A stretch of DNA of 64,000 bases from Torpedo marmorata. Lineage: Eukaryota. The stretch spans positions 60,884,001 through 60,948,000 of the forward strand of contig OZ360234.1 in the NCBI GenBank assembly GCA_977017645.1. The letters run 5' to 3'. Positions 3,220 through 43,670 of this stretch are shown here, one piece after another. Positions within the stretch are counted from its first letter, which is position 1, and the number at the start of each line of letters is the position of its first letter. The position numbers and the translations under genes are program-made. Under the pieces are notes generated by a model, which was not told the origin of the DNA, searched no databases, and saw only the letters and a list, made by a program, of their open reading frames with translations.

Positions 3220-4166
3220 TGTTACAAATTCAAACCAGCAACGACAGAAGACGCAATGCAAAAGGGGTAAAATTGAAATTTATATTTATTAAAGTCAATT
3301 AAACATATAATTTCACAACAATTAACCCCATTATAAACGTCTATAAATACTATTCTTATCTAAAATGTGTGTGTGTGTTTGTGTGTGTGTGTAAAGCCCA
3401 GACCATTACAGTCTGTGCCCAACCCTCATGTAAAAATGGAAAACCTTCCCCAAAACCCGCAGGTCAGTCATAAAAACAAGTCAGTCCCAAAAATACAGTC
3501 CACAAAATTTCACTCTCTATGTTCAGGGTCCAAATTCAGCTCTGTGTGCTGGCAAGAAGGACTTCTTAATGATCGTTGGAGAGAGAGACAATGACTGTTT
3601 ATGCTTACGAATGTTTGGCCTGCTTTTCTTCTCTGTTGACTTTCCCTTCTGGTAGTTTCACAAGGATTGCGACTCCAAATCCGTTTTGGATTGAGGCGTG
3701 TACTTGGATCTCACAGCCTGTCTCGTTGATCTCTCGCCTGTTCTTCACAAAAGTTGCCTTCAACTCAGGATTTTGCTGAATCACCAAGGCCTTGTTTTTC
3801 TCCCAGCCTTTTCCCCTGGGATGCACAAGCCTGGATTTTGCTGATTCAAGAGGCTCTGTGCTCTTCTCCCATCCTTTTCCTCTGGGATGCACAAGCCTGG
3901 ATTTTGTTGGGTTCTCCCGCCTTTGCAACTCCACAACTGAACTTTTAAGGCCTTTTTAGCGGAGGTCTTCACCTGCCTTTTCAAAAGTCCAACCAAGTAT
4001 ATCTTTCCACAGTTTGTCTCCCCCTGGTGCCTCTCTCTCGGTAAGTACAACAAGTCCTGGGCAAGTTAACTCTTTCAGTACCAGGTCCCAGTGTGTACTC
4101 CAAAAGACTTCATTCATCCTTCCTGCTGACCGTCCGCAGTCGAAATGGTCGTCATGGTCCATAACA
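3220..4166 (-). mobile_element. Solo LTR of the Gmr1-like Gypsy family
   Basis: TGTTACA...ATAACA termini, 4-bp TSD GACT (3216-3219 / 4167-4170), homologous to LTRs at 15105, 16960, 24217, 27906, 38778, 43674. Confidence 0.95.
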
Positions 4167-11498: not shown

Positions 11499-11599
11499 GT
11501 ATAGTATTATTCATCACCTCAGAGGCAGCACTGAAATGGACACTTGTCTTCTCATCACTTTTACGCTATTACTTTAAAACATTGGATGCTGGCAGGGTG

Positions 11600-12270
11600 A
11601 CAGATTATGCTATGGACCAAATCTGGCTGCTTTGCAATAGGAAGGATGTCATTAAACTGGAAAGGGTGCAGAAAAGATTTATGAGGATGTTACAGGAATG
11701 GAGGGCTTGCGTTATAAGGAGAAACTGCACAGGCCGGGTGTTTTTTCCCTGGAGCATAGGAGAATGAGGGATGACCTTATGGAGGTACATAAAATTATGA
11801 GGGGCATAGAGAAGGTGAATAGTCAAAGTCTTTTCCCCAGGATAGAGGAGTCTAAAATTAGAGGGCATAGGTTTAAGGTAAGAGTAGAAATATTTAAAAG
11901 GAGCTTGCAGGACATCTTCTACATGCAGATGGTGGGGGTATGTGTAACGAGCTGCCAGAAAAAGCTATAGAGATCGGTGATCTGGAGAAATGTTGTTTCG
12001 TCACTTTCTATATGTAGTCAGATGATAATAATCTTGAATTTGAACTTGAACATTTGGACAAATACATGGACAGGAAAGCTTCAGAGATATGGCTAAAAGC
12101 AAGCAAATTGAACTAGCGCAGATGGGCAACTGGCCAGCATAAATGTGTTGGGCTGAAGGGCCTGTTTCCATGCTATAAAACTGACTGTAAGTGCTCATGA
12201 ATAGAATTATTATAGATGGGTTAGGATGGACCCGGTGGGCCGACTGACCTGTTTCTGCGCTGTATGACAC
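11600..12270 (+). mobile_element. CR1 LINE 3' fragments
   Basis: KDVIKLERVQKRFMRML, FSLEHRRMRDDLMEVHKIMRG, RGHRFKV motifs. Confidence 0.75.
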
Positions 12271-12329
12271 TAATGGATGATGTAACTGATGAGCACCTTG
12301 CCCTTTTAACTCCGACAGCTGAAACCAAA

Positions 12330-12592
12330 TTTAATTTTTTTTAAATTTAGACATACAACACGGTAACAGGCCATTTCGGCCCACGAGTCCGTGCCGCCAA
12401 ATTTACACCCAATGAAACTTACCCCACCGGTACATTTCGAACGGTGGGAGGAAACCGGAGCCCACGGGGGAAACCCACACAGACATGAGGAGAACGTACA
12501 AACTCCTTACAGACAGAGTGGGATTCAAACCCCGGTCCCAATCGCTGGCGCTGTAAAGGCATTGCGCTAACCGCTACGCCAACCGTGCTGCA
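12330..12592 (-). mobile_element. tRNA-head SINE
   Basis: Head GCAGCACGGTTGGCGTAGCGGTTAGCGC...GGGTTTGAATCCC on - strand; A-rich tail. Confidence 0.75.
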
Positions 12593-13217
12593 CAGGGAAT
12601 AAAGGATTTTCTTCTGTAAAAATTATATGTAGTATAAGTAGTTTTGGCCCAATTACTTTGGACACAAGTTCAGAGAACAAAGTCACAAAATATTTGACAC
12701 CAAACTGATCAGTTTCCATTTCTCTTACTAGTCTGGCAAAAATGGAAATATTACTGAGCTCCTGATATTAAACATTGGAGGAGCAGAGTGAATAGCCCTT
12801 TCCTGCATTCTGTCTGACCTGAAACAGTCGAGTGTTGTTGGGTACCTAAGGTCAAGTATGTGTTGTGAATGAGAAATGGCATTTGAAAAAGCACGATACA
12901 ATGATGTGAAGTGATCACAAATAACTGCCTGGTATCTGTCCATCAGCTCACCTCAAGAGAAAAGGGAATGATCACAAAGGGGAGATAAATACAGAGTTGA
13001 CATTCTTGAAAAATGCCTTCAAATAATTCCAGCAGCACTCTCTGCTTTCAGACTAACATTTATATAAATCATTCAAGCTGGAGTAATCGAAGGTCAGCAC
13101 AGCGTTCCTTATTAGAGAGATATTGAAGCAGAGAAATAGCATTGTGTACGGGTTGAAGGATGTTTACATGTTTACAGGGCTATGACCCAATCCTGCTGTT
13201 AAATTATAAGATGGACT

Positions 13218-13585
13218 TGTAACCGACTGCTACGAAGAAACACACACACGCAGTGTGGAAGGTTAAGCTCCTTAATTTATTGAGGCTGGAAATGTTTCTT
13301 TTATACAGTTGGAGTTCCTGCCATTTGGTTGATTGGTTGACATCAGCCGCATGAATAACAATAGCGGGCGGGAACGTTCTTGCATATGAATACCCTTCTT
13401 CCCCAGCCTGGTATTGATCTGTTAGCTGGGCAGCTTGGCCAGCGCCATTTTAGGGCTGCTGGTCTTGTACTGCTCCAGCTTTCAACTGCAGCGGTTCGCT
13501 GTGCTAAGGGTCGCGTTACAGTGTGTTATGCCGCTGTTTACTACCGCGCACGCCAGCTCGATCTCCGCGGTGGCGGGCCGCCACA
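13218..13585. mobile_element. Solo LTR of a second, GC-rich family
   Basis: TG...CA termini, 4-bp TSD GACT (13214-13217 / 13586-13589), TTTATT near the left end suggests - orientation. Confidence 0.8.
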
Positions 13586-13644
13586 GACTATTGATTAGGT
13601 AACATGAGTTTGAGTCCATCCACTGCATGTAGGAAACTTAAATT

Positions 13645-14230
13645 ACATTAAATTTAGACATATAGCACAAACCCGTACCCCCAAATAACTAATTAACCTA
13701 CAATCCCCGTACGTTTTTGAAGGGTGGGAGGAAACCAGACCACCTGGAGGAAGCCCATGCAAACACAGAGAGAATGTACAAACTCCTTACAGCCAGCACT
13801 GGATTCAAACCCGGTCGCTGTTGCTGTAATACCGTCACGCTAACCGTGCCGCCCAATTAAATTAATCTCAACAGCTAGTATAATTGAATTAAATTGACTT
13901 GTTTATTGTCACATGTACTGAGATGCTGCATGCTATCCAAGCAAGTCAACTCACATGGCAGATTGTGCATTAACAAACAAATATATATAACAATATGGGG
14001 ATTAGTGTTACAATATGCCAAATAGTACAGGTTATGGAGAAGAACACAAAAACATTGTGCGTGGTACAGATAAAAAGTACAATCAAAAATAGTGAAAGGG
14101 CATTATTTTTTGCCAGAGTGAGACCCATTTAAGAGTCCGATAACAGCAGGAAATAAACTGTCCTTGAATCTGGAGGTTCATGCTTTTAAGTTCATGTATC
14201 TTCTGCCTGATGGAAGGGGGGGATAGGAAG
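13645..14230 (-). mobile_element. SINE (~13645-13856) followed by an old Rex1/Babar 3' fragment (~13890-14230)
   Basis: Similarity to the SINE and LINE 3' ends elsewhere in the window. Confidence 0.55.
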
Positions 14231-14484
14231 AGAATATGTGTGGAGTGGGATTGTGACCTGTGAGGTCACAGTTGTGACCTACTGGACCAAGTACTGGGAG
14301 GTAAGATGGGTGGCTCTTTTCGACCAGTATGGAGACAATGGCCCGAATGGCCACCTCTGTGTTGTATATTTTCTATGAATGACACTTCTTACATTCAATT
14401 ATCTTTCTTCCTTTCTGGGGACACTGAATTGAGCAGGAGCTCGATGCTGTTTAGTGTCACTTCCAACAAAAAATCAGGAAGGGA

Positions 14485-14735
14485 GTGACAGCACCAATAG
14501 CCTGAATACGACTGGGATTGTCTGATCTCGGAAGCGAAGCAGGCACAGGACTGGTCAGTACTTGGAGGGGAGACTGCCGAGGAACACCAGGTGCTGTAGG
14601 ATTCTGTGAGGGGTGCTGGACAAAGTAGCGACCCTCTGTCTGCCTTACGGTAGTCAAAAATTAAAGAATTTCATGTATATTACATTCTAAAAAATGTAGT
14701 ATTACGTGACAATAATGGAACCTTTACCTTTACCT
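14485..14735 (+). mobile_element. 5S rRNA-derived SINE (SINE3-type)
   Basis: Head GTCTGATCTCGGAAGCGAAGCAGG...CTGGTCAGTACTTGGA-GGGAGAC...CCAGGTGCTGTAGG aligns to 5S rRNA; non-5S body; GACAATAA + (CCTTTA)n tail; second copy at 47173-47419. Confidence 0.85.
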
Positions 14736-14769
14736 ACGAACACTCCAATCTTTCATGCTCGACGCTCAG

Positions 14770-14919
14770 TCTGCTGGAGGACCTCAGCAGATCGAGCAAG
14801 ATCAGTGGGAGAAAAAGAATTGTTAAAGTTTCAGGCGGAACCCTTCCATGAGGATCAAAATCCCAGCAATTCTTTTTCTCCCACTGATGCTGCTCGGCTC
14901 GCTGACTTCCTCCAGCAGA
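14770..14919. repeat. Short fold-back (Penelope pseudo-LTR-derived) palindrome
   Basis: TCTGCTGGAGGA...ATCAGTGGGAGAAAAAGAATTG / CAATTCTTTTTCTCCCACTGAT...TCCTCCAGCAGA inverted arms. Confidence 0.75.
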
Positions 14920-16959
14920 TGGATTCCAGCATCTGCATTCTCTCCTGTGTCTCCAGCCTTTCATGCTATTTGATTGTGCCTCATGCACCTGTGCTCCTTG
15001 TGCACTTCCTACAAAAATAACTACCGGTAGATAAATACCAGAGATGGGATACCTCGCTTGTTTTCCCCTCTTTCCTAGTTGAATGTAATTACAGTTATAC
15101 CTACTGTTACAAACTAAAACCAGCAAAGACAGAAGACGCAATACAAAAGGGGTAAAATTGAAATTTATATTTATTAAAGACAATTAAACATATAATTTCT
15201 TTCCAATTAACCCCACTATAAACGTCTATAAACACTATTCTTATCTAAAGAGTGTGTGTGTGTGTAAAGCCCACACCATTACAGTCTGTGCCCAACCCTC
15301 ATGTAAAAATGGAAAACCTTCCCCAAAACCCCCAGGTCAGTCATAAAAACAAGTCAGTCCCAAAAATACAGTCCACAAAAATCACTCTCTATGTTCAGGG
15401 TCCAAATTCAGCTCTGTGTGCTGGCACGAAGGACTTCTTAATGAACGTTGGAGAGAGAGACAATAACTGTTTAAGCTTACGAATGCTTGGCCTGCATTTC
15501 TTCTTTGATGACTTTCCCTTTAAGTAGGTACACGAGGATTGCGATTCCAAATCAGTTTTGGATTGAGGCGTATACTTGGATCTCACAGCCGGTCTCATTG
15601 ATCTCACGCCTGTTCTCCACGAAAGTTGATATAAATCAGGATTTTGTTGATACAGGAGGCCATGTGCTATTCTCCCAGCCTTTTCCCCTGGGATGCACAA
15701 GCCTGGATTTGGCTGTTCCAGCCTCTTGCAACTCCAAACTAAATCTGAATGCTTTTTGCAGAGGTTTTCACCTGCTTTTGCAAAAGTGCAACAAAGTATC
15801 TTTCCACAGCCTATCTCTCTCTCGGTGTTTCTCTCTCTCTCTTTGAGTACACCCCGTCCTGGGCAAGTTAACTCTTTCAGTACCCTAACTTTGTCAGTAA
15901 ATTTTTCTCCTTCCTGCGTGTTATGCCTCTTCTCACTCTGAATACAAGCATTAGGTGTTGCATCCTTTTCTCTCTTCTTTTTCAACACTGGACAGCTTTC
16001 TAGCATATGACCAGCCTTCCTACAGTAGTGGCAAATGGGACCCGAAGGGTTTTCCCTTTTCCACTTTCCTTCATCTCTTTCCTTAACAACACTTCCAAAT
16101 TTACTTTCCACTAGCTTGGGATTATCCAAAGTGCCCTTTTGGAAAATTCTGCCTGACGTCCACTTAGGCTTGTGGGTTAAAACATATTCATCTGCTAATT
16201 TAGCTGAATTTTGCCAAGTTTTCATGTCATTAATATCCTTAATGCCTTAATATCCTCAGGTACACACCTTTTTATCTCCTCAATTAGTATCGATTCTCTC
16301 AATTGATTGTAATCATTGTTTACTGCCTTAGATGTGCACCACTGGTCAAAACACACAAGCTTTTCATAGGCAAACTCTGTGTAAGAGTGGGTTGCTGATC
16401 TTTTTAAATTTCTAAACTTCTGTGTAGCCTTTTTCACCGTTTCATTATCAGCAGCTTACTCCATGGTAAGAGAAGAATAAGCCTGCTGAGCTTTTCCTTT
16501 AGTTACACTTTGTAACATAAGAGTATTGGTCTTGTGGCCATTTTAATTTCACAGCCACCTTCTCAAAATGCTGGAAGTACTTATCTATTTCTGCCTCCTC
16601 AAATGGAGGAACCAACCTAACTTCTCTACTGGCCAAAAACCTCTCTGCAGGATGACAAATTTGATCTTGGTGCTCTTCTTGTCTCCTCTCATTTTCCAAC
16701 TTAATCTTTTCCAGCTCATATTGCCTAATTTTCTCCTCATTCTCTAATCTCTTTTGGTCCAATTCCGTGTCTAATCTCTTTTGTTCCCTGGCTACCTCCA
16801 AGTCTAATCTTTTTTGTTCCAATTCCCTGTCTAATTTCTTTTTTTTTGTATATTTTATTTTTAATTTTAAATTTTCAGACAGTAATACATACGTAAATAA
16901 TATACATTATTAATTTCAGTAAATAAAAAACATAATTATATTTGTATTACATAGTGTAA

Positions 16960-19900
16960 TGTTACAAGATTCAAACCAGCAACGACAGAAGACGCTATGC
17001 AAAAGGGGTAAAATTGAAATTTATATTTATTAAAGACAATTAAACATATAATTTCACAACAATTAACCCCACTATAAACGTCTATAAACACTATTCTTAT
17101 CGAAAAGGTGTGTGTGTGTTTGTGTGTGTGTGTGTAAAGCTCAGACCATTACAGTCTGTGCCCAACCCTCATGTAAAAATGGAAAAACGTTCCCCAAAAA
17201 CCCCAGGTCAGTCATAAAAACAAGTCAGTCAAAAAAAATAATACAGTCCACAAAAATTCACTCTCAATGTTCAGGATCCAAATTCAGCTCTGTGTGCTGG
17301 CAAGCAGGACTTCTTAATGAACGTTGGAGAGAGACAATGACTGTTTATGCTTACGAATACTTGACTTGCTTTTCTTCTCTGATGACTTTCCTTTTTGGTA
17401 GAGATTCACGAGGATTGCGACTCCAAATCAGTATACCACTGATTGAGGCGTGTACTTGGATCTCACAGCTGGTCTCGCTGATCTCACGCCTGTTCTCCAC
17501 AAAAGTTGCTTTAACTCAGGATTTTGCTGAGACAGGAGGCCATGTGCTATTCTCCCAGCCTTTTTCCCTGGGATGCACAAGCCTGGATTTTGCTGTGTTC
17601 TCTAGCCTTTGCAACGCCAAACTGCCACTGAAACTGAATGTTTTTTGCAGAGGTTTGCACCTGCTTTTGCAAAAGTGCAACAAAGTATCTTTTCCACAGC
17701 CTGTCTCTCTCTGCTCTCTCTCTCTCTCTGGGTACACCAAGTCCTGGGCAAGTTAACTCTTTCAGTACCTGGTCCCAGTGTGTACTCCAAAAGACTTCAT
17801 CCTTCCTGCTGACCGTCCACAGTCCAACTGGTCAGTCATGGTCCATAACACCTCCCACCCACAAAGAAAATTTTGGTCTGCAAGAACAAAATTTTTGAAA
17901 TTAATTGAGGTGTCACAATATAAACAAAATCTACAATGTTCATCCACAAACACAAAATATGAACTATTTTCATTTATAAAGTTTAGCATCGAGAAAGACA
18001 ATCAGCAATTACATTATCTTTCCCTTTTATATGTGTTATTACCAAATCATATTCTTGCAAAATTAGACTCCAATTCAATAACCGTCGATTCTTATTTTTC
18101 ATTTTACAAAGAAAAACCAATGGATTATGGTCAGTATACACTATGAGTGGTTTTTGAGCTGTACAGATATACACATCAACGTGTTGTAGAGCCAACACAA
18201 GAGCCAACAACTCTTTTTCTATGATTGAATAATTCCTTTGATGATCATTGAACTTCTTCGAGAAGTAGGATACCGGATGGTCAATGTCCTCTTCGTTCTT
18301 CTTCTGTAACAGCACCGCGCCCACAGCTTCATCGCTGGAAACCACGGCTAAAGAAAACGACTGTTCTAAATTAGGTGACTTAAGCACAGGTTGGTGGCAT
18401 AACATGGCTTTCAATTTGACAAATGCTTCCTGACAACCTGTCAACCATACAAATTTTTCTCTTTTTCTAAGCAAATTTGTGAGAGGGAGCGCAAGATCAG
18501 CAAAGTTTTTACAGAACTTGCGGTAGTAGCCAATCATTCCCAGGAACCTCCTCAGAGTTTTCTTACCAGTTGGAACAGGGAACTCGGAAATAGTCACAAC
18601 CTTTTCCTCTACTGGCGCCAACTTCCCCTGTCCTACTACATAACCCAGAGTATTAACAGTCCCATGACCCTCTCTGAAACAGGTTTTATCTGTCTCCTCC
18701 TTACCACTGTCGTTAACCAGCACCTCTGGTAAATGTTCAGTCCCTTTTTTCGGCACCTGTTCAAAATATGGCTTAATCATATTCACATGACAGACCTCTG
18801 TGTCTCGTCTGCGATTAGGTGTTTCTATGACATAGGTGACATCATTAATTTTTGCCTTAACTCTATAGGGTCCTGAAAATCTAGCCCGAAGAGGATTTGA
18901 ATGGATGGGAAACAGAACTAATACATTCTCACCAGGTTTAAAAGTTCTCATCTTAGCCTTTCGATCATACCAAACCTTCATTTTCTGTTGAGTGGCCTTC
19001 AAAGTCTCCTTTGCCATCTCACAAGCCCTATGCAACCGATCCTTAAATTTGGAAACATAATCGAACAGATTTAAATGCACATCACTATTAATCCACTGTT
19101 CTTTTAATAATCTTAAAGGACCTCTCACCTCATGTCCAAAAACTAACTCAAATGGACTAAAACCAAGTGATTCTTGGACAGACTCCCTCGCTGCAAATAA
19201 CAACAAATGAACCCCCTCATCCCAATCCTTTTCCTTTTCACAAAAATAGGTTCTAATCATGTTTTTCAATGTCGAATGGAACCTCTCCAAGGCCCCTTGA
19301 CTTTCTGGATGGTACACAGAGGATACAATCTGTTTAACTCCCAGTCCATCAACCATTTGTTGGAAAAACAAGATTTACCATTAGTTTTAACATTAGACGC
19401 TGAAAAGGCTTTTGATAGATTAGAATGGAATTTTTTATTTAAGGTATTGGAGAAATTAGGCTTTGGAAATACATTTATTAATTGGATTAAAACTATATAT
19501 AAAGAACCATCTGCTAAAGTAGTTACAAATGGACAAATTTCCTCAAAATTTCCTTTGACTCATTCTACTAGACAGGGATGTCATCTGTCACCAGCATTAT
19601 TTATTTTGGCGATAGAACCTTTGGCTGAATTAGTTAGAAAAGATCCTAAAATAGTTGGTATTAAAGTTGGTACAGAAGAACATAAAATTAGCTTGTTTGC
19701 AGATGATGAACTGATATATATGACAAAATCTATTACATCACTTCAACAATTATCTATTATATTAAGAGACTATGGGGAAATATCTGGATATAAAATTAAT
19801 TTTGATAAAAGTGAAATAATGGCATTATCTCAAGGTGATTATAGTAGATGTAAAGAAATTACACAATTTAAATGGGCAAAGGAGGGAATTAAATATTTGG

Positions 19901-22900
19901 GAGTAAAGGTTGATACAAAATTGGATAATTTATATAAATTAAATTATTTACCATTATTTGCAAAAATAAAGAAAGACTTAGAGAATTGGAAAGATTTACC
20001 TATAACTTTAATGGGAAGAGTAAATTGTATTAAAATGAATATTTTTCCAAGAATTCAGTATCTTTTTCAATCAATTCCTTATGGAATTCCTCAAAATTTT
20101 TTAAAGATTTAAATTTAATTACTAGGAATTTTTTTATGGAAAGGAAAGTTAGCAAGAGTAGGTATGGAAAAACTAACTTGGAATTATGAAATGGGTGGTT
20201 TACAACTTCCTAATTTTCAAAATTATTATAAAGCAGCTCAATTAAAATTTGTTAATGAATTTTTTGATTCAACTAAATCTTCTGCTTGGATTAAGATAGA
20301 ATTAAATAATATAGGAAAAGACCTCAAAGAAGAAATTATTTATAAATGGGATTCTAAATTAATATCAATAAAAAAGAAGAATTCGCCTATTTTAAAACAT
20401 TTGTTAGAAATATGGAATAAGACGGATAAGGAAATAGGAGCAAAAGGATTGATTTCTTCAAAGATGCCTTTATATCAAAATGGACTTATTCCATTTAATA
20501 TTAATAATCAATTATTTAAAATTTGGTTTCAAAAAGGAGTTAAGAAGATTAGTGATTGTTTTGAAGCTGGGAAATTTATTACGTTTCAAAGAATGAAAGA
20601 TAAATTTAATATATTGGATAATACATTTTTGGCTTATTATCAAATTAAAGCTTTTTTGACTGAGAAATTAGGTTATGCTTTGACTTTTCCAAGACAAAAT
20701 GAATTAGAATTATTAGTTACTAATGGAGATGTTAATAAATTTATTTCTCAAATGTATAAATTGTTTCAGAGGAAAATGCCTAAAGTAGGACTGCATAAAT
20801 CAAGATTAAAATGGGAATTAGATTTGAATGTAAGTATAGATGAAAATCATTGGAAAGAATTATGTAAATTAAGTATGACGAAGATTATCAACGTTAGATA
20901 TAGACTAGTTCAATATAATTTTTTTCATCAATTATATTTAACACCTAAAAAATTAAAGAAATTTAATCCGGCATTATCAGGTTTATGTTTTAGATGTAAT
21001 AAAGAGGAAGGGTCTTTTGTACATTGTACATGGTTTACCCAAAAGTTTATGAATTTTGGTTGAAAGTTAAAAAAATTTTTGATAAAGTATTTTAGATTAC
21101 ATTTCCAATGGATCCTATGATATTTTTGTTTGGAGATATTAAAAAATTTAGTATTAAGAAGAAATTAAATATGTATCAAGTAGAATTTTTGCGAATTGCT
21201 TCAGCTGTTTCAAAGAAATGCATTGCTATTACTTGGAAATCTGATTTAGATTTAGGATTAGAAAGATGGCATGCAGAACTTCGTTCGTGTATACCACTTG
21301 AAAAAATTACTTATAATTTATGTAATAAATATCATTTTTTCTTAAAAATTTGGAGCCCATATATGAAAGCTGTTGGTTTAAGGATATGAAGATCTCTGGA
21401 TATCAGATCTACTGGCACACTTGACCTCCATAATAGAATTAGTTTATAGATGGCATTCCCCTTACTCTACCTTTTTCTTTCTTTCTTTTTTCTATTTTTA
21501 CTTTTTATTTTATTTTTACTAGATTAGTGGGGGTGGGGGGGTTGGGGAGGGGAGGGAGGGAGGGGGAGAAAATGTATCACAAATAATTTGATAATTTTAT
21601 ATTCTATTTTATGTATTTTGTGATTAAAAATTTTAAATAAAATATTTAAAAAAAAAAAAAAAAAAAAAAAACCATTTGTTGGTAAACGCCTGACATGAAA
21701 TTACTGCCCTGATCTGATTGAATTTCCCTTGGCAAACCTACCAAGGTGAAAAACTTTACCATAGCCTTTACAATTGACTTTGCTTTTATGTTTCTCAGAG
21801 GAATGGCCTCTGGAAATCTGGTGGCTGCAGACATAATTGTTAACAAATACTCATTCCCCGCTTTGGTTTTGGGCAATGGGCCAACACAGTCCACAATCAC
21901 TCTCGAGAAAGGCTCACTGAAAGCAGGGATAGGTTGCAAGGGTGCCACCGGGGGACCCTGATTAGGTTTACTCACCACCTGACAAGTGTGACAGGCCCGG
22001 CAAAAGCTTACAACCTCCCTTCTCAAACTGGGCCAATAAAATTGTTTCATTATCTTCCTTATAGTTTTCTTCACCCCAAGGTGACCACCTAAGGGTGTAC
22101 TATGAGCCAAAGTTATTATTGCATCCCTATATACTTTAGGGATCACAACCTGCTGCACTACTGCCCATTCTTCATTGGCAGGAACATCACATGGTCTCCA
22201 CTTTCTCATCAACACCCCATCTTTTTCATAATAACCCACTGGCACCTTTTTAATATCTTCTTCAGAGAGAACCTTATCCCTCACCTCAGCAAGATCAGAA
22301 TCGTCCTTTTGCCTTGCTATTAGCTCCAGTTGGGATAGTGACAAGTCTGTGCCTTTAGGTGTCTTATCAGTGGATGGGTGTAACATTGGAGATTACTCAA
22401 CCTTTTCCAGGTGTTTTTGATTATCACCGACTTTTTCTTTCACCAATTTATTTTCCACTGCCTTCTCTACAGTGACATTTTTCTTAGACATGGCCCTGGT
22501 TATGGCACATGCCAGATAAATATCAGAGTCTTTCTCTGACTTATCAATGACTGGCTTAATGGTCATTCTCAATGCAGGAACTACTTTACCCTTGGCCAAG
22601 TCATTGCCTAGCAACAGTGAGACTCCTACTGGGAACTCTGATCTCACTACTATTATAACAGGTCCTTCCACCAAGTCTGAGTCCAATACTATTTTGTGCA
22701 AAGGAATGGAATCAACATCATCCCCAATTCTTTAATTAAATTTATATCACCAGTGTCAGTAGCTTCACAAAATTCCAAGACGCTATCTAACACAAGTGAC
22801 TGAGCAGCTCCAGTATCTCGCAAGATTTTCACTGGAACTTGTTTTGATCCTGCCTTAACTGAAACAAAACCATCAGTCACAAAAGGTTTAAATACATCTC

Positions 22901-25102
22901 TAACTTTGTCAGTAAATTTATCTCCTTCCTGCGTGTTATGACTCTTCTCACTGAATACAAGCATTAGGTGTTGCATCCTTTTCTCTCTTCTTTTTCAACA
23001 CTGAACAACTTGCTCGCATATGACCAGCCTTCCTACATTAGTGGCAAATGGGACCCGAAGTGTTTTCCCTTTTCCACTTTCCTTCATCCATTTCCATAAC
23101 ACCACTTCCAAATTTACTTTCCACTTGCTTGGGATTATCCACAGTGACCTTTTGGAAAATTCTACCTAACGTCCACTTAGGCTTGTGGGTTAAAGCATAT
23201 TCATCTGCTAACTTAGCTGAATTTTGCCAAGTTTTCACGTCCTTTTCATCTAAGTATGCCTTAATATCCTCAGGAACACACCTTTTTAATCTCCTCGATT
23301 ATTATCAATTCTCTCAATTGATTGTAATCATTGTTTACTGCCTTATATGCGCACCACCGGTCAAAACACATAACCTTTTCATAGGCAAACTCTGTGTAAG
23401 ATTGGGTTGCTGCTCTTTTTAAATTTCTAAACTTCTGTCTATAAGCCTCTGGAACTAACTCATAACCCTGGAGTATAGCCTTTTTCACCGTTTCATAATC
23501 AGCAGCTTGCTCTGTGGTAAGAGTAGTATAAGCTTGCTGAGCTTTTCCTTTAATTACACTTTGTAACATAAGAGACCATTGGTCTTGTGGCCATTTTAAT
23601 TTCACAGCCACCTTCTCAAAATGTTGGAAGTACTTATCTATTTCTGCCTCCTCAAATGGAGGAACCAACCTAACTTCTCTACTAGCCAAAAACCCCACAG
23701 CAGGATGACGAATTTGATCTTGGTGCTCTTCTTGTCTCCTCTCATTTTCCACCCTCATCTTTTCCAGCTCATATCTCCTATTTTTCTCATTGTTCTCATA
23801 TCTCTTTTCTTCCAATTCCAATTCTAATTTCTTTTGTTCCCTGGTTGCCTCCAATTCTAATTTCTTTAGTTCCAACTGTATGTTTTCAGAAGGTTTACCC
23901 TTGGGAAACTGCTCTAACACGCTCTCCTCAAACTTTTTTTCTTTTATATAGTATTTGACAATTTTTCTCCCAATCTCTGCCTTTTTTCATAAATGGTTTT
24001 ACCGAAGCAATGCCCGACTCTGTTGCTGTAGCCACTAACTGTTCCTTTTTCACCTTTTTTAAAGTATCAGGTTCACGTGATTCCAAAAATGTTCCTACAT
24101 CCATTGTTGCTGGTTTTTCATTACACACACACTAAAACCATGTCTAAAACCAGAATGGGATTCCTTCAATTACCAAGATGGATTTTTAATTTAAATCCAA
24201 GGACGAGCCCCAATTTTGTTACAAGATTCAAACCAGCAACGACAGAAGACGTAATGCAAAAGGGGTAAAATTGAAATTTATATTTATTAAAGACAATTAA
24301 ACATATAATTTCACAACAATTAACCCCACTATAAACGTCTATAAACACTATTCTTATCTAAAAGGTGTGTGTGTGTGTGTGTGTGTGTAAAGCCCAGACC
24401 ATTACAGTCTGTGCCCAACACTCATGTAAAAATGGAAAAACTTTCCCCAAAAATCCCAGGTCAGTCATAAAAACAAGTCATTCAAAAAAATAATACAGTC
24501 CACAAAATTTCACTCTCTATGTTCAGAATCCAAATTCAGCTCTGTGTGCTGGCAAGCAGGACTTCTTAATGAACGCTGGAGAGAGACAATTACTGTTTAT
24601 GCTTACGAATACTTGACTTGCTTTTCTTCTTTGATGACTTTCCTTTTTGGTAGAGATTCACGAGGATTGCGACTCCAAATCAGTATACCACTGATTGAGG
24701 CGTGTACTTGGATCTCACAGCTGGTCTCGCTGATCTCACGCCTGTTCTCCACAAAAGTTGCTTTAACTCAGGATTTTGCTGAGACAGGAGGCCATGTGCT
24801 ATTCTCCCAGCCTTTTTCCCTGGGATGCACAAGCCTGGATTTTGCTGTGTTCTCTAGCCTTTGCAACTCCAAACTGCCACTGAATCTGAATGCTTTTTGC
24901 AGAGGTTTGCACCTGCTTTTGCAAAAGTGCAACAAACTATCTTTTCCACAGCCTGTCCCTCTCTGGTCTCTCTCTCTCTCTGGGTACACCAAGTCCTGGG
25001 CAAGTTAACTCTTTCAGTACCTGGTCCCAGTGTGTACTCCAAAAGACTTCATCCTTCCTGCTGACCGTCTGCAGTCCAAATGGTCAGTCATGGTCCATAA
25101 CA
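16960..25102 (-). mobile_element. Inner Gmr1-like LTR retrotransposon (Gag-PR-IN-[RT deleted]-RNaseH), frameshifted
   Basis: LTRs 16960-17850 and 24217-25102; TSD GTAA/GTAT; PBS next to 24217; PPT next to 17850; Gag LVPPF...LVPEAYRQKFR, protease LRDTGA, integrase HHCC/DDE, RNase H ELLAL-YTDH-ADCLSR. Confidence 0.95.
19364..21669 (+). mobile_element. 5'-truncated L1-clade LINE inserted into the integrase of the inner LTR element
   Basis: RT and C-terminal ORF pieces 19364-20112, 20164-21063, 21108-21389; AATAAA and long poly(A) 21648-21669; TSD AACCATTTGTTGG (19351-19363 / 21670-21682); same family as 56945-62889. Confidence 0.95.
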
Positions 25103-28100
25103 GTATCTAACCCTTCCCTGAACCCCCCCAACCCCTTATATCTTCCAAACACTTCAAGTTAAAATTATTGCTTAATATTTAATGTTTCTGTCCCACTCTC
25201 CACCCTTTCCCTCCCTTTAAATTCCCTTCCCTTACTAAAAACTAAAAAAAGAAAAGAAAAGAAGGTAGTGTAGTATTACTTATTAAAACATCTGTACGAT
25301 CGCTGCTGGGTCCACAGTTCGATGCATGGTATTCAACAGTATTTTTATTATTTAAATTTGAGAGAGTTAACAGGGTCTATAACGTAGAGCAACACATTTA
25401 AATATTCATACCTAATGATTGGATATATGGTCGCCAAATTTGCAAGAAGACCCCATATTTATTTCTCATATTATATGTTATTTTTTCCAATGGAATACAA
25501 CTCCACATCTCTGTATTCCATCTATCCATACCTAAATTTGTATCTGATTTCCAAGTTACTGCTATATACTTCCTTGCTACTGCTAAAGCAATTTTTATAA
25601 ATTTCAATTGATATGTTGATAACTTCAACTTTGGTCTAGTTCCTTCCACATTCCCTCATAAAAATAAATCAGGGTTTTGTGGAAATGTGACACCTGTAAT
25701 TTGTTTTAACAAATTCCCTCACTCCATCCAATTTTTTTTTACCTTAGAGCATAACCATGTTGAATTAAAAAAGTTCCCTCTTCTTCACCACATCTAAAAC
25801 AGTTGTTTGATAATGTAGATTTTATCTTATTCCATTTTTGTGGTGTAAGATATAATTGATGTAAAAAATTATACTGTACTAATCTATATCTTACATTAAT
25901 AGTGTTGGGCATGCTATCTTGACATAAATCCGACCATCTTTTTTCATCAATTATAACATTAAGATCTTGTTCCCATCTCTGTTGAGATTTATGAAGTCCT
26001 TGTTTTAAGGTTCCCCTTTGTAACAAGGAATATATTATAGAAGTAAATTTTTTAATATTTCCTTTCCTAATAAGAGTTTCCACTTCACTACAATTTTGTA
26101 ACAACATATCCGGACCTAATTTTTCCCTTAAATATCCTCTTAATTGAAAATAACAAAAAAGAGTATTATTCAGTATTCCATATTTGTTTCTTAGCTGTGT
26201 AAATGACATAAATTGCTTTCCTTCATAACAATCTTCTATCTTCTTTATTCCTTTCTGTGACCATATATTTAAAAATTGATTACCTTTTGTAAAGGGTATG
26301 AGATTATTCTGTATCAATGACGTTTTAGGTGATATAGTTCCTTTCATCCCTATCTCATCATTAATCTTGTTCCATGCAGTAATCAAATGTTTTAATAATG
26401 GTGTTTCTTTAACTCCTATCAATAATTTTGAGTTCCATTTATATATAAATTCTTCTGGTACTTTCTCTCCTATTTCTCCTAACTCTATTCCGACCCATGC
26501 AGGTCTTTCTTCACTTTCAAAAAAGGAAGTAACAAATCTCATTTGTGCCGCTTGATAATAATTTTTAAAATTAGGGAGGTTTAAACTTCCCAATTCATAT
26601 TTCCATGTTAAACATTCCATAGAGACTCTTGACATTTACCTTTCCAAAGAAATTTTCTCACTTGTTTATTTAAATCCTGGAAAAAACCTGTGGTAGTAAA
26701 ATAGGTATAGTTTGATACAAATATTGTATCCTTGGAAATATATTCATTTTAATACAGTTAACTCTTCCTATCAAAGTAATAGGTAAATTAATCCATTTTT
26801 CCAAATCTTCTTTAATCTTTTTAAGTAATGGTAGATAATTCCATTTATATAAATTTTTAAAATTATTGTCTGTTCGAATCCCAAGGTATTTTATCCCATT
26901 ATGCGGCCATTTAAACTGAGTATTTCTTTTACATGTAGTATAATCTCCCTCTGTAAGAGGCATAATTTCACTTTTATCCCAATTTATCTTATAACCTGAA
27001 ACTTTCCCATATTCTTCCAATTTAAAATGCAATCTTTGCAAAGAGGTCTCAGGCTCTGTCAAATATATTAAAACATCATCCGCAAATAAGCTGATTTTAT
27101 GTTGTTCTTGACCAACTCTAAATCCCTTAATTACTGAGTCACTTCTAATTGCCTCTGAAAGTGGTTCTATAGCTAATATAAATAAAGCTGGTGACAATGG
27201 GCACCCTTGTCGACAAGATCTTGTCAAACAAAACAAAGTTGATGTTTGTCCATTAGTCACTACTTTAGCTTTTGGAGTGTTATATAATGCTTTAATCCAA
27301 TTTATATAAGTCTGTCCAAATCCAAATTTCTCCAATACTTTAAACAAAAAATCCCATTCCAATCTATCAAAAGCTTTTTCTGCATCTAATGCCAGCGCAA
27401 CACTTATTACTTTTCTTTTTTGAGCTAAATGAACAATACTAAGTAACCTTGCTACATTGTCAGCTGCTTGTCTTTTTTTTATAATATCTGTTTGATCCAT
27501 ATGTCTAATTTCTTTTGTTCCAATTCCAATTTCTTTAGTTCCAACTGTATGTTTTCAGAAGGCTTACCCTTGGGAAACTGCTCTAACACGCTCTCCTCAA
27601 ACTTTTTCCCTTTTATATAGTATTTGGCAATTTTTATCCCAATCTCTGCCTTTTTCATTGATGGTTTTACAGAAGCAATGCCCAACTCTGTTGCTATCGC
27701 CACTAACTGTTCATTTTTAGCCTTTTTTAAAGTATCGGGTTCAGGTAATTCCAAAATATTTTCTACATCCATTGTTGCTGTTTTTTTTGTTACACACACA
27801 CTAGCTATTAATTAGCTTTATAAAAAGGAATGTCTTAAACCAGACTGGGATTCCTTCAATTACCAAGATGGATCTTGATTCAAATCCTCGGATGATCCCC
27901 CAATTTGTTACAAATTCAAACCAGCAACGACAGAAGACGCAATGCAAAAGGGGTAAAATTGAAATTACTATTTATTAAAGACAATTAAACATATAATTTC
28001 TTTCCAATTAACCCCACTATAAACGTCTATAAACACTATTCTTATCTAAAGAGTGAGTGTGTGTGTGTGCGTGTGTGTGTAAAGCCCAGACCATTACAGT

Positions 28101-28647
28101 CTGTGCCCAACCCTCCTGTAAAAATGGAAAACCTTCCCCAAAACCCCCAGGTCAGTCATAAAAATAAGTCAGTCCCAAAAATACAGTCCACAAAAATCAC
28201 TCTCTATGTTCAGGGTCAAAATTCAGCTCTGTGTGCTGGCAAGAAGGACTTCTTAATGAACGTTGGAGAGAGAGAGACAATAACTGTTTAAGCTTACGAA
28301 TGCTTGGCCTGCTTTTCTTCTCTGATGACTTTCCCTTTTAGTCGGTACACGAGGATTGCGATTCCAAATCAGTTTTGGATTGAGGCGTATACTTGGATCT
28401 CACAGCCGGTCTCATTGATCTCACGCCTGTTCCCCACGAAAGTTGATTTAAATCAGGATTTTGCTGATACAGGAGGCCATGTGCTATTCTCCCAGCCTTT
28501 TCCCCTGGGATGCACAAGCCTGGATTTGGCTGTGTTCTCCAGCCTTGCAACTCCAAACTATTGAATCTGAATGCTTTTTGCAGAGGTTTGCACCTGCTTT
28601 TGCAAAAGTGCATCAAAGTATCTTTCCACAGCCTGTCTCTCTCTCTC

Positions 28648-28683
<36 letters not shown>

Positions 28684-29354
28684 CACCCCGTCCTGGGCAA
28701 ATTAACTCTTTCAGTACCTGGTCCCAGTATGTACTCCAAAAGACTTCATCCTTCCTGCTGACCGTCCACAGTCCAAATGGTCAGTCATGGTCCATAACAC
28801 TACCTTATCATGATTAACTCGGCAGAGAACATAGTGAGAATATATAAAGTTCCTGTACCTCATTGCTGCCCAAAACAGAGCAATCTGCTAACAATGTCAA
28901 TATTTTATTTCCTAATTATCAGTTAGCTGGCAGGGGTTGGTCCCATACAGAGTAAGTGGTGATTTCTGAGAACTTGTGCATAAAAGTGATGATGGTGATG
29001 TATCAATTTGTAACTTTATATATTCGGGCGAGGGTTGACGTTTCCCTTGAAAGAGCAGCAAAAAAGACCAAAAAATCTTTGTTAGTATTAGATGCTGTCG
29101 GAACAGTATCCTTAGGAAGTTGTCCTGGGAACATTGGGAGGGCACTACTTATTCATGCAGAATCCAGATTCCTGGACCGTATTTTGGGATAGGTATTCAG
29201 GAGAGCTTTTCACTTTCACTTGCTAAATGTGGTCTTAATACTGGACCCCTTTTTAAATTCATTTAGTAAATCTGAAACCTCTATCACTTACTCAAAATGA
29301 CCTTGAATTAAGGATAAATGATAATCTCCAATAACTTTAATATTTTATTTTCAG

Positions 29355-38165: not shown

Positions 38166-39504
38166 CTTTCCTTAGATGGAATTTGTGAACTTGGTCATTA
38201 TTATTTTCAAGATAAGAGAAGGTAACAATAAATAAATATCTCGGAAGGACGTGAAGAGGTAGGAAATAATCTTAGATAGTGCAAGAACTTGAGATAATAT
38301 AGGTCTGAAAAAGGAGGCGACAAATTCGGCATGTGCAAAATTATCACAGTGAATGCAGAAATCAGAATTGCTTTGTATGCTAGCCCATGTCAAGTGATTT
38401 GAAATCAAACCATGTCGTGCAATTTGAAGCAAGGTACATCCAATTATTTCTGACATTCCACTTCAAAAGTACTTTATTTTGAGACAGTTTAAAACAGACA
38501 TAGGGAGCAAAATATTAATGTAAGGCTTTTTCTTTTTGTCGATTTAATTTGAGACATTACAATAAATAACCCCAAAGAATTAGTAACATTTTACCCTTCC
38601 TTAAAAATATTTCATTTCTGAAGCAAAATGTGTTCCTCAATTAACTAAACTGCGACATTATGAAATAAATCTGAATTTTTTTAGGACTGTATTATCTTGG
38701 ATCTCATCACACTCAAGCACACATCAGATAATGAAAATCATGTCATTTTTAATGAAAATGTAATAATTCTTGCCTATTGTTACAAATTCAAACCAGCAAC
38801 GACAGAAGACGCAATGCAAAAGGGGTAAAATTGAAATTATTATTTATTAAACACAAGTAAACATATAATTTCACAACAATTAACCCCACTATAAACGTCT
38901 ATAAACTCTATTCTTATCTAAAAGGTGTGTGTGTGTGTATGTGTGTGTAAAAAGCCCAGACCATTACAGTCTGTGCCCAACCCTTATGTAAAAATGGAAA
39001 AACTTTCCCTAAAAACCCCAGGTCAGTCATAAAAACAAGTCAGTCAAAAAAAGAGAATAATACAGTCCACAAAATCCACTCTCTAAGTTCAGGCTTCAAA
39101 TTCAGCTGTGTCTGGTAGAAATACTTCTGAATGAACGTTGGAGAGAGACAATGACTGTTTATGCTTACAAATACTTGTTTTCTTCTCTGATGACGTCCCC
39201 TTCTTGGGTGTTCATAAGGATTGTCTGTTCAGATCAGTATACCACTGATTTAGGCGTATGCTTGAATCTCACAGCTAGTCTCGCTGATCTCACGCCTGTT
39301 CTCCACAGAAGTTGCTTTTTCTCAGAATTTCTCTGAGACAGGAGGCCATGTGCTATTTTGCCAGATTTTCTCTGACTATGCACAAACCTGGATTTGGCTG
39401 TGTTCTGTAGCCTTTGCAACTCACAACTGTGTGCTTTGCAGAGATCTGCCCCTGCTTTTTGCAAAAGTGCAACAATGTATCTTTTCCACAGTCTGTCTCT
39501 CTCT

Positions 39505-39537
<33 letters not shown>

Positions 39538-39656
39538 GTACACCAAGTCCTGGGGAAGTTACCTTTTTCAGTAATTGGCCCCAGTGTGTAATCCAAAAGA
39601 CTTCATCCTTCCTGCTGACCGTCCGCAGTCCAAATGGTCAGTCATGGTCCATAACA

Positions 39657-39668
39657 CCTCCCACCCAC
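39657..39668 (-). promoter_or_regulatory. Polypurine tract
   Basis: GTGGGTGGGAGG abutting the 3' LTR; identical at 17851-17862. Confidence 0.75.
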
Positions 39669-39789
39669 AAAGGAAATTTTGGTCTGCAAGAACAAAATTT
39701 AGGAAAGTAATTGAGGTGTCAGAATATAAACAAAATCTACAATGTTCATCCACAAATACAAAATATGAACTATTTTCATTGATAAAGTT

Positions 39790-42700
39790 TAACATCCAGA
39801 AAGACAATCAGCAATTACATTATCTTTCCCTTTTATATGAGTGATTACCAAATTATATTCTTGTAAAATTAGACTCCAATTCAACAACCGTCAATTCTTA
39901 TTTTTCATTTTACAAAGAAAAACCAATGGATTATGGTCAGTATACACTATGAGTGGTTTTTGAGCTGTACAGATATACACATCAAAGTGTTGTAGAGCCA
40001 ACACAAGAGCTAACAACTCTTTCTCTATAGTTGAATAATTCCTTTGATGATCATTGAACTTCTTCGAGAAGTAGGATACCGGATGTTCAATGTCCTCTTC
40101 GTTCTTCTTCTGTAACAGCACTGCACCCACAGCTTCATCGCTGGCATCCACGGCTAAAGAAAACGACTGTTCTAAATTAGGTGACTTAAGCACAGGTTGG
40201 TGGCATAACATGGCTTTCAATTTGACAAATGCTTCCTGACAACCTGTTGACCATACAAATTTTTCTTTCTTTCTAAGCAAATTTGTGAGAGGGAGCGCAA
40301 GATCAGCAAAGTTTTTACAGAACTTGCGGTAGTAGCCAATCATTCCCAGGAACCTCCTCAGAGTTTTCTTACCAGTTGGAACAGGGAACTCGGAAATAGC
40401 CACAACCTTTGCCTCTACTGGCGCCAACCTCCCCTGTCCTACTACATAACTCAGAGAATTAACAGTTCCATGACCCTCTCTGAAACTGGTTTTATCTGTC
40501 TCCTCCTTACCCCTGTCAATAACCAGTACCTCTGGTACATTTTCAGTCCCTTTGTGTGGCACCTGTTCAAAATACGGCTTAATCATATTCACATGACAGA
40601 CCTGTGTGTCTCGTCTGCGATTAGGTGTTTCTATGACATAGGTGACATCATTAAATTTTGACTTAGCTCTATAGGGTCCTGAAAATCTAGCCCTAAGAGG
40701 ATTTGAATGGATGGGAAACAGAACTAGTACGTTCTCACCAGGTTTAAAAGTTCTCATCTTTGCCTTTCGATCATACCAAACCTTCATTCTCTGTTGAGTG
40801 GCCTTTAAATTCTCCTATGTAACCGATCCTTAAATTTGGAAACATAATCGAACAGATTTAAATGCACATCACGATTAATCCACTGTTCTTTTAATAATCT
40901 TAAAGGACCTCTCACCTCATGTCCGAAAACTAACTCAAATGGACTAAAACCAAGTGAGTCTTGGACAGACTCCCTCGCTGCAAATAACAACAAATGAACC
41001 CCTTCATCCCAATCCTTTTCCTTCTCACAACAATAGGTTCTAATCATGGTTTTCAAAGTCGAATGGAACCTCTACAAGGCCCCTTGACTTTCTGGATGGT
41101 ACGCAGAGGATACAATCTGTTTAACTCCTAGTCCACCAACCACTTGTTGGAAAACGCCTGACATGAAATTACTGCCCTGATCTGATTGAATTTCCCTTGG
41201 CAAACCTACCAAGGTGAAAAACTTTACCATAGCCTTTACAATGGACTTTGCTTTTATGTTTCTCAGAGGAATGGCCTCTGGAAATCTGGTGGCTGCACAC
41301 ATAATTGTTAACAAATATTCATTCCCTGCTTTGGTTTTGGGCAATGGGCCAACACAGTCCACAATGACTCTCGAGAAAGGCTCACTGAAAGCAGGGATAG
41401 GTTGCAAGGGTGCCACCGGGGGACCCTGATTAGGTTTACCCACCACCTGACAAGTGTGACAGGCCCGGCAAAAGCTTACAACCTCCCTTCTCAAATTGGG
41501 CCAATAAAATTGTTTCGTTATCTTCCGTATAGTTTTCTTCACACCAAGATGACCACCTAAGGGTGTACTATGAGCCAAAGTTATTATTTCATCCCTATAT
41601 ACTTTAGGGATTACAACCTGCTGCACTACTGCCCATTCTTCATTGGCAGGAACATCACGTGGTCTCCACTTTCTCATCAACACCCCATCTTTTTCATAAT
41701 ACCCAACTGGCACCTTTTTAATCTCCTCTTCAGGGAGAACCTTATCCCTCACCTCAGCAAGATCAGGATCGTCCTTTTGCCTTGCTATTAACTCCTGTCG
41801 GGATAGTGACAAATCTGTGCCTTTAGGTGTCTTATCAGTGGATGGGTGTAACATAGGAGATTGCTCAACCTTTTCCAGGTTTTCTTGATTGTCAGTTTCT
41901 TTTTTTTTTACCAAGTTATTTTCCACTGCCTTCTCTACAGTGACATTTTTCTTAGACATGGCCCTGGTTATGGCACATGCCGAATAAATATCAGAGTCTT
42001 TCTCTGACTTATCAATGACTGGCTTAGTGGTCATTCGCACTGCAGGAACTACTTTACCCTTGGCCAAGTCATTGCCTAACAACAGTGAGACTCCTTCTAC
42101 TGGCAACTCTGATCTCACTCCTATTATAACTGGTCCTTCCACCAAGTCTGAGTGCAATACTATTTTGTGCAAAGGAATGGACTCTACCTCACCACCAATT
42201 CCTTTAATTAAATTTATGTCACCGGTGTCAGTAGCTTCACAAAATTCCAAGACACTATCTAACACAAGTGACTGAGCAGCTCCAGTATCTCGCAAGATTT
42301 TCACTGGAACTTGTTTTGATCCTGCCTTAACTGAAACAAAACCATCAGTCACAAAAGGTTTAAATACATCTTTAACTTTGTCAGTAAATTTATCTCCTTC
42401 CTGGGTGTTATACATCTTCTCACTCTGAATACAAGCATTAGGTGTTGCATCCTTTTCTCTCTTCTTTTTCAACACTGGACAGCTTGCTATCATATGACCA
42501 GCCTTCCTACAGTAGTGGCAAATGGGACCCGAATTGTTCTCCCTTTTCCACTTTCCTTCATCCCTTTCCTTAACACCACTTCCAAATTTACTTTCCACTT
42601 GCTTCTGATTATCCACCGTGTCCTTTTGGAAAATTCTACCTGACGTCCACTTAGGCTTGTGGGTTAAAGCATATTCATCTGCTAACTTAGCTGACTTTTG

Positions 42701-43567
42701 CTAAGTTTTCACCTCCTTTTCATCTAAGTATGCGTTAATATCCTCAGGAACACACCTTTTTATCTCCTCGATTATTATCAAATCTCTCAATTGATTGTAA
42801 TCATTGTTTACTTCCTTAGATGTGCACCACCTGTCAAAACACACAACTTTTTCATAGGCAAACTCTGTATAAGATTGGGTTGCTGATCTTTTTAAATTTC
42901 TAAACTTCTGTCTATAAGCCTCTTGAACTAACTCATAAGCCTGGAGTATAGCCTTTTTCACCGTTTCATAATCAGCAGCTTGCTCCATGGTAAGAGTACA
43001 ATAAGCTTGCTGAGCTTTTCCTTTAATTACACTTTGTAACATAAGAGACCATTGGTCTTGTGGCCATTTTAATTTCACAGCCACTTTCTCAAAATGTTGG
43101 AAGTACTTATCTATTTCTGCCTCCTCAAATGGAGGAACTAACCTAACTTCTCTACTAGCCAAAAACCCCTCAGCAGGATGACGAATTTGATTTGGGTGCT
43201 CTTCTTGTCTCCTCTCATTTTCCAACCTCATCTTTTCCAACTCATATCTCCTATTTCTCTCATCGTTCTCTAAGTCTAATCTCTTTTGTTCCAATTCCAA
43301 TTTCTTTAGTTCCAACTGTATGTTTTCAGAAGGTTTACCCTTGGAAAACTGCTCTAACACACTCTCCTCAAATTTTTTTTCTTTTATATAGTATTTGACA
43401 ATTTTTCTCCCAATCTCTGACTTTTTCATAGATGCTTTTACCGAAGCAATGCGCAACTCTGTTGCTATAGCCACTAACTGTTGCTTTTTCGCCTTTTTTA
43501 AAATATCAGGTTCAGGTGATTCCAAAAAATGTTCTACATCCATTGTTGCTGGTTTTTCGTTACACAC
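39790..43567 (-). pseudogene. gag-pol polyprotein remnant: Gag (coiled coil, SCAN-like capsid, CCHC), protease, integrase, RT C-terminal remnant/connection, RNase H
   Basis: ORFs 42701-43567, 41072-42616, 40805-41056, 39891-40787 separated by point stops or a small indel; LRDTGA, HSTPLGGH/CRAC HTC, VDCVGP-SDQGSNF-QGAL(E), AVDASD-ELLAL-YTDH. Confidence 0.92.
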
Positions 43568-43652
43568 ACATAGCTTTTAATTAGCTTTACAAAAGGAATG
43601 CCTTAAACCAAACTGGGATTCCTTCAATTACCAAGATGGATTTTGATTCAAA

Positions 43653-43670
43653 TCCTAGGACGAGCCCCCA
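43653..43670 (-). promoter_or_regulatory. tRNA-Pro primer-binding site
   Basis: TGGGGGCTCGTCC(TAGGA) 3 nt after the 5' LTR; matches the tRNA-Pro PBS TGGGGGCTCGTCCGGGAT; variants next to 24217 and 27906. Confidence 0.85.

Follow-up and report, generated by a model that had tools for sequence, protein, structure and literature searches.

Nested clusters of retrotransposons are common in plants and vertebrates, younger elements lying inside older ones and being ordered by their target-site duplications (TSDs) and by the divergence between their long terminal repeats (LTRs). A cluster of the same kind was found in a 64,000-nt stretch of the Torpedo marmorata genome (assembly GCA_977017645.1, contig OZ360234.1, positions 60,884,001 to 60,948,000; hereafter the window, whose own numbering is used below), within one intron of a SHIP1/2-family inositol phosphatase gene. 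Here, LTR and L1 elements alternate (LTR > L1 > LTR > L1) within a divergence spread of about two percentage points, and all four nested insertions were confirmed to be genuine, as first described in an annotation made from the sequence alone (the original prediction). Both LTR elements belong to one family, most copies of which are without the core of reverse transcriptase (RT).

The closest described relatives of this family are elements of the Gmr1 clade of Ty3/Gypsy, which, according to the available parts of the sources, possess a SCAN-like capsid, the domain order protease (PR), integrase (INT), RT and RNase H (RH), and one gag-pol frame (PMC8220671; bioRxiv 2025.03.03.638093; PMC11117352). 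The present family has the same SCAN-like capsid, domain order and single frame, but differs in that about three quarters of its copies are without the RT core, INT and RNase H still being in frame. Comparable shortening without an RT motif was found in 2 of 120 long homologues. Separately, a Gmr1-like protein of a sea cucumber (P0089) likewise has integrase and RNase H without an intervening RT core, although this is a single record that may be a gene-model artefact. A second point of comparison is the mouse element IAP 1Δ1, described in the accessible part of its report as non-autonomous, carrying an internal deletion with an open frame, and dominant among new insertions, with a fusion protein reported to act in cis (PMC6466679). 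As far as that text goes, both are non-autonomous forms with an internal deletion that keeps one open frame, but IAP 1Δ1 lacks 1.9 kb of gag and pol of a retrovirus-derived element, whereas here the RT core alone is cut and gag, PR, INT and RNase H are kept. Thirdly, BARE-2, the wheat families Quinta, Sabrina and Angela, TR-GAG and sugar-beet families are partly coding, non-autonomous and co-evolving with a helper, and template switching or gene conversion has been proposed to move LTRs between these plant elements and their helpers (PMC11302176, PMC9744471, bioRxiv 2026.03.01.708851, in the parts available). Judged from the same parts, these plant families lack gag, or the whole of RT and INT, or contain frames that have decayed, and they make up sub-families of their own; in contrast, the two forms found here are indistinguishable beyond 50 nt from the deletion. 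No account of an RT-less Gmr1 family or of its expansion was found in the literature, though subscription journals, repeat databases and supplements may hold one. Compared with the known partly coding families, the distinguishing aspects are a deletion of the RT core only, its occurrence in a vertebrate Gmr1-like family, its frequency of about 75%, and the absence of a separate lineage outside 50 nt.

The predicted extent of the nest (13.7 kb of a 17.9-kb intron) agrees with the measured lengths of 13,695 bp and 17,856 bp. The layers, strands and TSDs of the prediction likewise held, but it had overlooked that the outer element has lost pol and that the inner one has lost the RT core, as well as the inverted duplicate 250 kb away. 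The features are as follows (UTR, untranslated region; ORF, open reading frame; PBS, primer-binding site; PPT, polypurine tract):

11499..29354 (17,856 bp), plus strand: host intron of the SHIP1/2-family inositol phosphatase gene, GT..AG
15105-28799 (13,695 bp), minus strand: outer LTR element, TG..CA ends, CTAC at 15101-04 and 28800-03
15105..15884, minus strand: 3' LTR remnant of the outer element, first ~80 bp missing, junction 15884/15885
15885..16842, minus strand: 3' part of the outer gag, ending at the L1-A target site
16843..16959, minus strand: L1-A poly(A) and 3'UTR end, T-run at 16838-47
16960-25102, minus strand: whole inner element, TSD GTAA (left) / GTAT
16960..17850, minus strand: inner 3' LTR, 891 bp, PPT immediately internal to it
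17851..19363, minus strand: C-part of the inner integrase, continuing in frame into RT thumb and RNase H; absent at ~18670-18680 is the RT core (257 codons, 771 bp, including the catalytic motif)
19364..21669, plus strand: L1-B, 5'-truncated, 2.3 kb, with poly(A), TSD at 19351 and 21670, AATAAA at 21636
21670..24216, minus strand: inner PBS, gag (SCAN-like capsid, zinc knuckle), protease and integrase N-part
24217..25102, minus strand: inner 5' LTR, 886 bp
25103..27501, minus strand: L1-A, 5'-truncated ORF2 (RT and C-terminal part) and 3'UTR
27502..27905, minus strand: outer PBS, leader and 5' part of gag
27906..28799, minus strand: outer 5' LTR, 894 bp
38778..44530, minus strand: third family copy, uninterrupted and RT-less, TSD CTAT, LTRs 1.7% apart, a natural empty-site control
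3220..4166, minus strand: solo LTR of the same LTR family, TSD GACT

Each of the four layers of the confirmed nest is flanked by its own TSD, and for each of them a related sequence without the insertion was retrieved. The outer insertion site is empty in two related organisms (samples X2 and X3), in each of which one contig, recognised as such by the equal length and depth of the flank matches, extends over both flanks with 26-29 letters between them. The splitting of the outer gag by the minus-strand L1-A was borne out by a 15-bp TSD, TGTCTAATTTCTTTT, that occurs exactly twice in the window (16828 and 27502) and by the absence of an L1 at this site in all ten gag relatives examined, three of which contain flank, 15-mer and flank once, while six contain an extra natural 27-bp gag repeat unit and one has a different sequence there. 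The 3'UTR of L1-A is in turn split by the second element of the same LTR family, at a site that is empty in 19 of 19 L1-A relatives with a 4-base overlap; because 18 of these sites read GTAT and one GTAA, the left GTAA is a GTAT altered by one later change. Similarly, the inner integrase is split by L1-B, whose TSD, AACCATTTGTTGG, is found on both sides, the poly(A) preceding its second copy. The uninterrupted third copy spans this site and its alignment overlaps both flanks by 17 bp, indicating a TSD of 13-17 bp. The LTRs pair by subfamily, the outer pair being 3.3% and the inner pair 2.6% divergent, as against 7.4-8.7% for cross pairs. Both L1-A and L1-B belong to the L1 clade, as they match human L1 ORF2p at E-values of 1e-58 to 1e-65, far above R2, and display the poly(A), variable TSD and 5' truncation of that clade.

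The two-branch divergences follow the nesting, with 3.3% for the outer LTRs, at most 3.1% for L1-A (the nearest of 13 sufficiently overlapping relatives out of 19 fetched), 2.6% for the inner LTRs and at most 1.7% for L1-B (the nearest of 19). Hence, the outer pair is not less diverged than the inner one, although the LTR counts by themselves do not distinguish the two (p = 0.47). The order outer LTR element, L1-A, inner LTR element, L1-B is supported by topology, empty sites and divergences, in line with the original prediction, which also found support in its claim that the LTR family and two L1 families had overlapping periods of activity. We estimate at roughly 85% the probability that the nest arose by four separate retrotransposition events, likely sequential, which needed no targeting since the LTR family and L1 are abundant, and that the inner, RT-less copy likely moved with the enzyme of complete relatives. 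The sequence of events would have started with a Gmr1-like LTR element inserting antisense in the intron, followed by L1-A in its gag, by a second copy of the subfamily in the 3'UTR of L1-A, and by L1-B in the integrase of that copy. The outer element would have lost pol and PPT after its insertion, and the inverted duplication of its outer part with the L1-A junction and the next exon, 250 kb off, may have occurred at about the time of the third insertion.

The LTR family displays TG..CA ends, a PBS, which we take to resemble the end of tRNA-Pro, a PPT and a short TSD. Its single gag-pol frame encodes gag (SCAN-like, with zinc knuckle), protease, integrase, RT thumb and RNase H. The Pfam order is H2C2-rve-p58_C-RT_RNaseH, collinear with full-length homologues, with integrase upstream of RT/RNase H. 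The SCAN-like capsid (PF02023) was detected above the cut-off in the third copy (E = 9e-9) and below it in the inner copy (2e-5). Over the RT thumb/RNase H part, the identity to a protein annotated from Pristis pectinata is 77%. By domain order, SCAN-like capsid and homologues, the family is probably a Gmr1-like Ty3/Gypsy family (gag-PR-INT-RT-RH). In both the inner and the third copy, about 250 RT residues including the catalytic motif are absent (residues 917-1196 of homologue P0003 have no counterpart), and the reading frame continues across the junction. An RT-bearing member with the 771 bp, itself broken, is located at 60.68 Mb on the same contig, next to the inverted duplicate described below. 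The deleted 771 bp are bounded by imperfect 11-bp repeats (8 of 11 positions alike); splicing as the origin of the deletion is unlikely, as GT..AG ends are absent from the deleted stretch in both orientations.

Genome-wide, the RT-less junction occurs 17,910 times and the RT-bearing one 6,175 times (exact 23-mers; reversed controls 0), and in arbitrary 10-kb stretches six RT-less copies were found versus one RT-bearing copy and two of undecided state, so that about three quarters of the family copies are without the RT core. A single breakpoint is shared by the 39 RT-less copies with usable alignments (40 fetched). Paired LTRs and TSDs within one mismatch were present in 30 of 33 complete elements, and RT-less copies have their own TSDs and paired LTRs 0.1 to 6.1% apart. 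These three features indicate that the RT-less form itself multiplied over the whole visible history of the family. The age difference between the two forms was not significant (medians 1.4%, n = 13, versus 2.2%, n = 9; p = 0.32). RT-bearing partners exist that are 93-97% alike inside and have the same LTR ends, their shared variants in the RT core having a ratio of nonsynonymous to synonymous substitution (dN/dS) of 0.07. As candidate partners, the best 150 matches to a foreign RT were discarded, since the ten fetched at length represent a different family (70-77% identity). The genome also harbours a second abundant Gmr1-like family (L123-L132), which has RT, is 70-77% alike inside and has different LTRs. 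In addition, tandem arrays with shared LTRs (LTR-internal-LTR-internal-LTR) were seen at four loci (L242, L243, L252 and L235), the central pair of L242 being 0.1% apart.

In trees of gag, integrase and RNase H, RT-less copies are interspersed with RT-bearing ones, and the grouping of all RT-less copies in one clade was rejected (approximately unbiased test, p = 4e-110 for gag and 0.005 for RNase H). The two forms are told apart by only 8 of 4,040 columns, none of which lies farther than 50 nt from the junction (7 of 4,015 in a set of 20 plus 20 copies from the lists only). The oldest RT-less copies (LTRs 5.5-6.1% apart) retain ancestral states at several of these columns, and in one RT-bearing row (L272) the 5' columns derive from a neighbouring RT-less copy, which slightly blurs the contrast. 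A likely explanation is a single old deletion allele that recombination has kept matched to its helper. The deletion would have arisen once, via a template switch at the short repeats; RT-less RNA would then be packaged together with RT-bearing RNA and copied by the RT of its partner, template switching exchanging all sequence except the bases beside the deletion. Alternatively, the deletion may have recurred at a hotspot of microhomology, an explanation that we consider rather improbable. It would account for the 11-bp repeats flanking the deleted stretch, for the intermixing of the forms, and for 2 of 37 junction reads that carry RT-bearing letters over the next 15 bases, but RT-less copies of all ages from 0.1 to 3.7% have in common, to either side of the junction, marker bases that are absent from RT-bearing copies of the same ages, and the oldest RT-less copies, the source of several exceptions, match the oldest RT-bearing haplotype. 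With a single spreading allele preferred, the RT-core deletion may tentatively be viewed, at somewhat less than even odds, as a selfish allele in one freely recombining Gmr1-like population, represented from the oldest to the youngest datable copies and in about 75% of tens of thousands of them, in a family that would have added 200-600 Mb; the RT-less form might win because it would still provide its own Gag, protease, integrase and RNase H, acting in cis as is reported for IAP 1Δ1. Selection on the proteins of the RT-less form itself was not established, as the purifying signal of shared variants is also present in RT-bearing copies. In RT-less copies, shared variants have a dN/dS of 0.13-0.47 without a shared stop, singletons one of 0.67-1.05, and private shared variants comprise 8 nonsynonymous and 4 synonymous changes; nearly all shared RT-less variants occur in RT-bearing copies too.

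The abundance of the two kinds of elements was assessed in 80 arbitrary 10-kb stretches of the 6.2-Gb genome, of which the LTR family covers 6.1% (bootstrap 3.2-9.5%) and L1-like DNA 11.9%. Among 40 family elements picked at even steps from the junction lists, nine contain a total of 11 L1 inserts. A rough product over 24,000-59,000 elements, with partly assumed inputs (mean L1 of 1.6 kb; 30-50% of elements younger), gives 2-28 expected four-level nests genome-wide, some of which should turn up when many windows are scanned, and the frequency of such nests is likely about chance level in so repeat-rich a genome. The original prediction had further proposed that interiors of transposable elements act as tolerated landing sites, and more generally the nest could reflect preference, targeting or selection. 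All four family members in the host gene (window 3220, 15105, 16960 and 38778) are antisense to it, which may reflect orientation selection, and several further elements are also inserted in long interspersed nuclear elements. Conversely, no enrichment was found: L1 inserts have a density of 47/Mb inside family elements and one of 42-74/Mb in arbitrary DNA, while an L1 hosts 3 of the 33 complete elements, versus an L1 share of 11.9% (p = 0.79); also, the TSDs of 30 elements show a weak base bias only. The proposal of specially tolerated interiors was therefore not upheld, and targeting is improbable, even more so than a recurrent RT deletion.

The outer element is incomplete: its 3' LTR breaks off at 15884, where the gag/PR boundary follows directly, and the deletion has removed ~80 bp of U3, the PPT and the whole of pol (~2.8 kb by comparison with the inner copy). 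This loss probably postdates insertion, because the 5' LTR retains the U3 stretch that is absent from the 3' LTR and both are copied from one template. An inherited subfamily without PPT was rejected, as just one of 40 scored places has the 15884/15885 junction. The junction of L1-A and gag has a second copy 250 kb away (G000:C47:60,654,991-60,662,731), in an inverted 3.6-kb copy of window 26946-30529 that comprises outer 5' LTR, intron and next host exon and is 2.5-3.1% diverged. Another L1, 4.2 kb long and with a TSD of ~14 bp, subsequently interrupted the exon copy (loci L114-L115), and the end of the duplicate is without poly(A). As the duplicate holds the junction, L1-A was already present at the time of duplication, which provides independent evidence. 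The exon variants of sample X1 do not represent this duplicate (14 of 37 match).

It is very unlikely that some layers arrived jointly, so that the order at this locus would not equal the order of nesting. L1-B, for instance, lies antisense in the inner element, and its poly(A) signal would therefore not stop the RNA of that element; a second genomic copy of the L1-A junction exists as well. However, of 40 scored places the window alone has the L1-B junction, which led to the rejection of L1-B as a passenger, and L1-B is younger than the inner LTR pair. Moreover, the second L1-A junction belongs to the 3.6-kb duplication of DNA with intron and exon, which lacks both a second LTR and a poly(A) end, so that a mobile composite of outer element and L1-A was rejected too.

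Several points weigh against four separate and ordered events without targeting. First, the differences of outer and inner LTRs are inseparable (25/778 versus 23/886; p = 0.47), and the ages of both L1s are maximum values, derived from the nearest relatives among 19 each. L1-A differs by 2.5% from the column-commonest letters of its relatives, which exceeds 1.6% (half of the outer LTR divergence) and, taken as an age, would invert the order; this excess is read here as subfamily drift. Secondly, the L1-A TSD sits within a tandem gag repeat. Thirdly, gene conversion between genomic copies could have mixed the two forms of the family instead, co-packaging being deduced indirectly. Fourthly, the assumed inputs of the nest expectation count here too, all 40 listed elements come from one contig (first 13 Mb and 56 Mb), and the TSD and dating counts exclude 27 of 60 loci, which were incomplete or interrupted. 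Lastly, the nest consists almost entirely of high-copy repeats in an assembly judged without long reads, but a mis-assembly is most improbable of all, given the own TSD at each junction, the pairing of LTRs by subfamily, the absence of N from the window, the recurrence of the L1-A junction at 97% in an independent place, and a contig of another, closer sample that appears to contain the left junction of the outer element, being identical throughout 15036-15125 (thin evidence, as the LTR contributes only 21 letters).

Taken by itself, the nest is ordinary and serves as a tidy local clock. The family, in contrast, provides extensive natural material for asking by what means a defective retroelement remains compatible with its helper, and what share it can attain until the helper becomes limiting, as tens of thousands of dated copies with one breakpoint and linked markers make the distance of template switching and the ratio of defective to helper copies through time measurable. 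It is also a likely major contributor to this 6.2-Gb cartilaginous-fish genome, and annotation based on RT would undercount it. At the LTR end (window 28720-28800), the summed contig depth is ~5 million in sample X1 versus 11-15 on unique DNA, and 390 versus 16 and 68 versus 10 in two other organisms, a hint, though not a count, of lineage-specific expansion.

The host gene was assigned to the SHIP1/2 family through PF24147 in the upstream exons, and the splice joint of the intron was found in a contig of a relative, from a run merely guessed to be RNA. L1-B is in sense orientation to this gene. No tRNA gene was found in the 64-kb window. Elsewhere in the window, a full-length L1 (56950-62890) contains two long ORFs (497 and 1224 residues) with endonuclease and RT, and a flanking repeat, AGATGGGTGCAAATA; it is 84% identical to L1-B and 68% to L1-A, both nest L1s being truncated themselves. 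A decayed L1 (36000-38777) directly adjoins the third LTR element, and a 5'-inverted L1 (45455-46715) has its 5' part on the minus strand, its 3' end on the plus strand, and a TSD-like repeat, AAATGCACAATCT.

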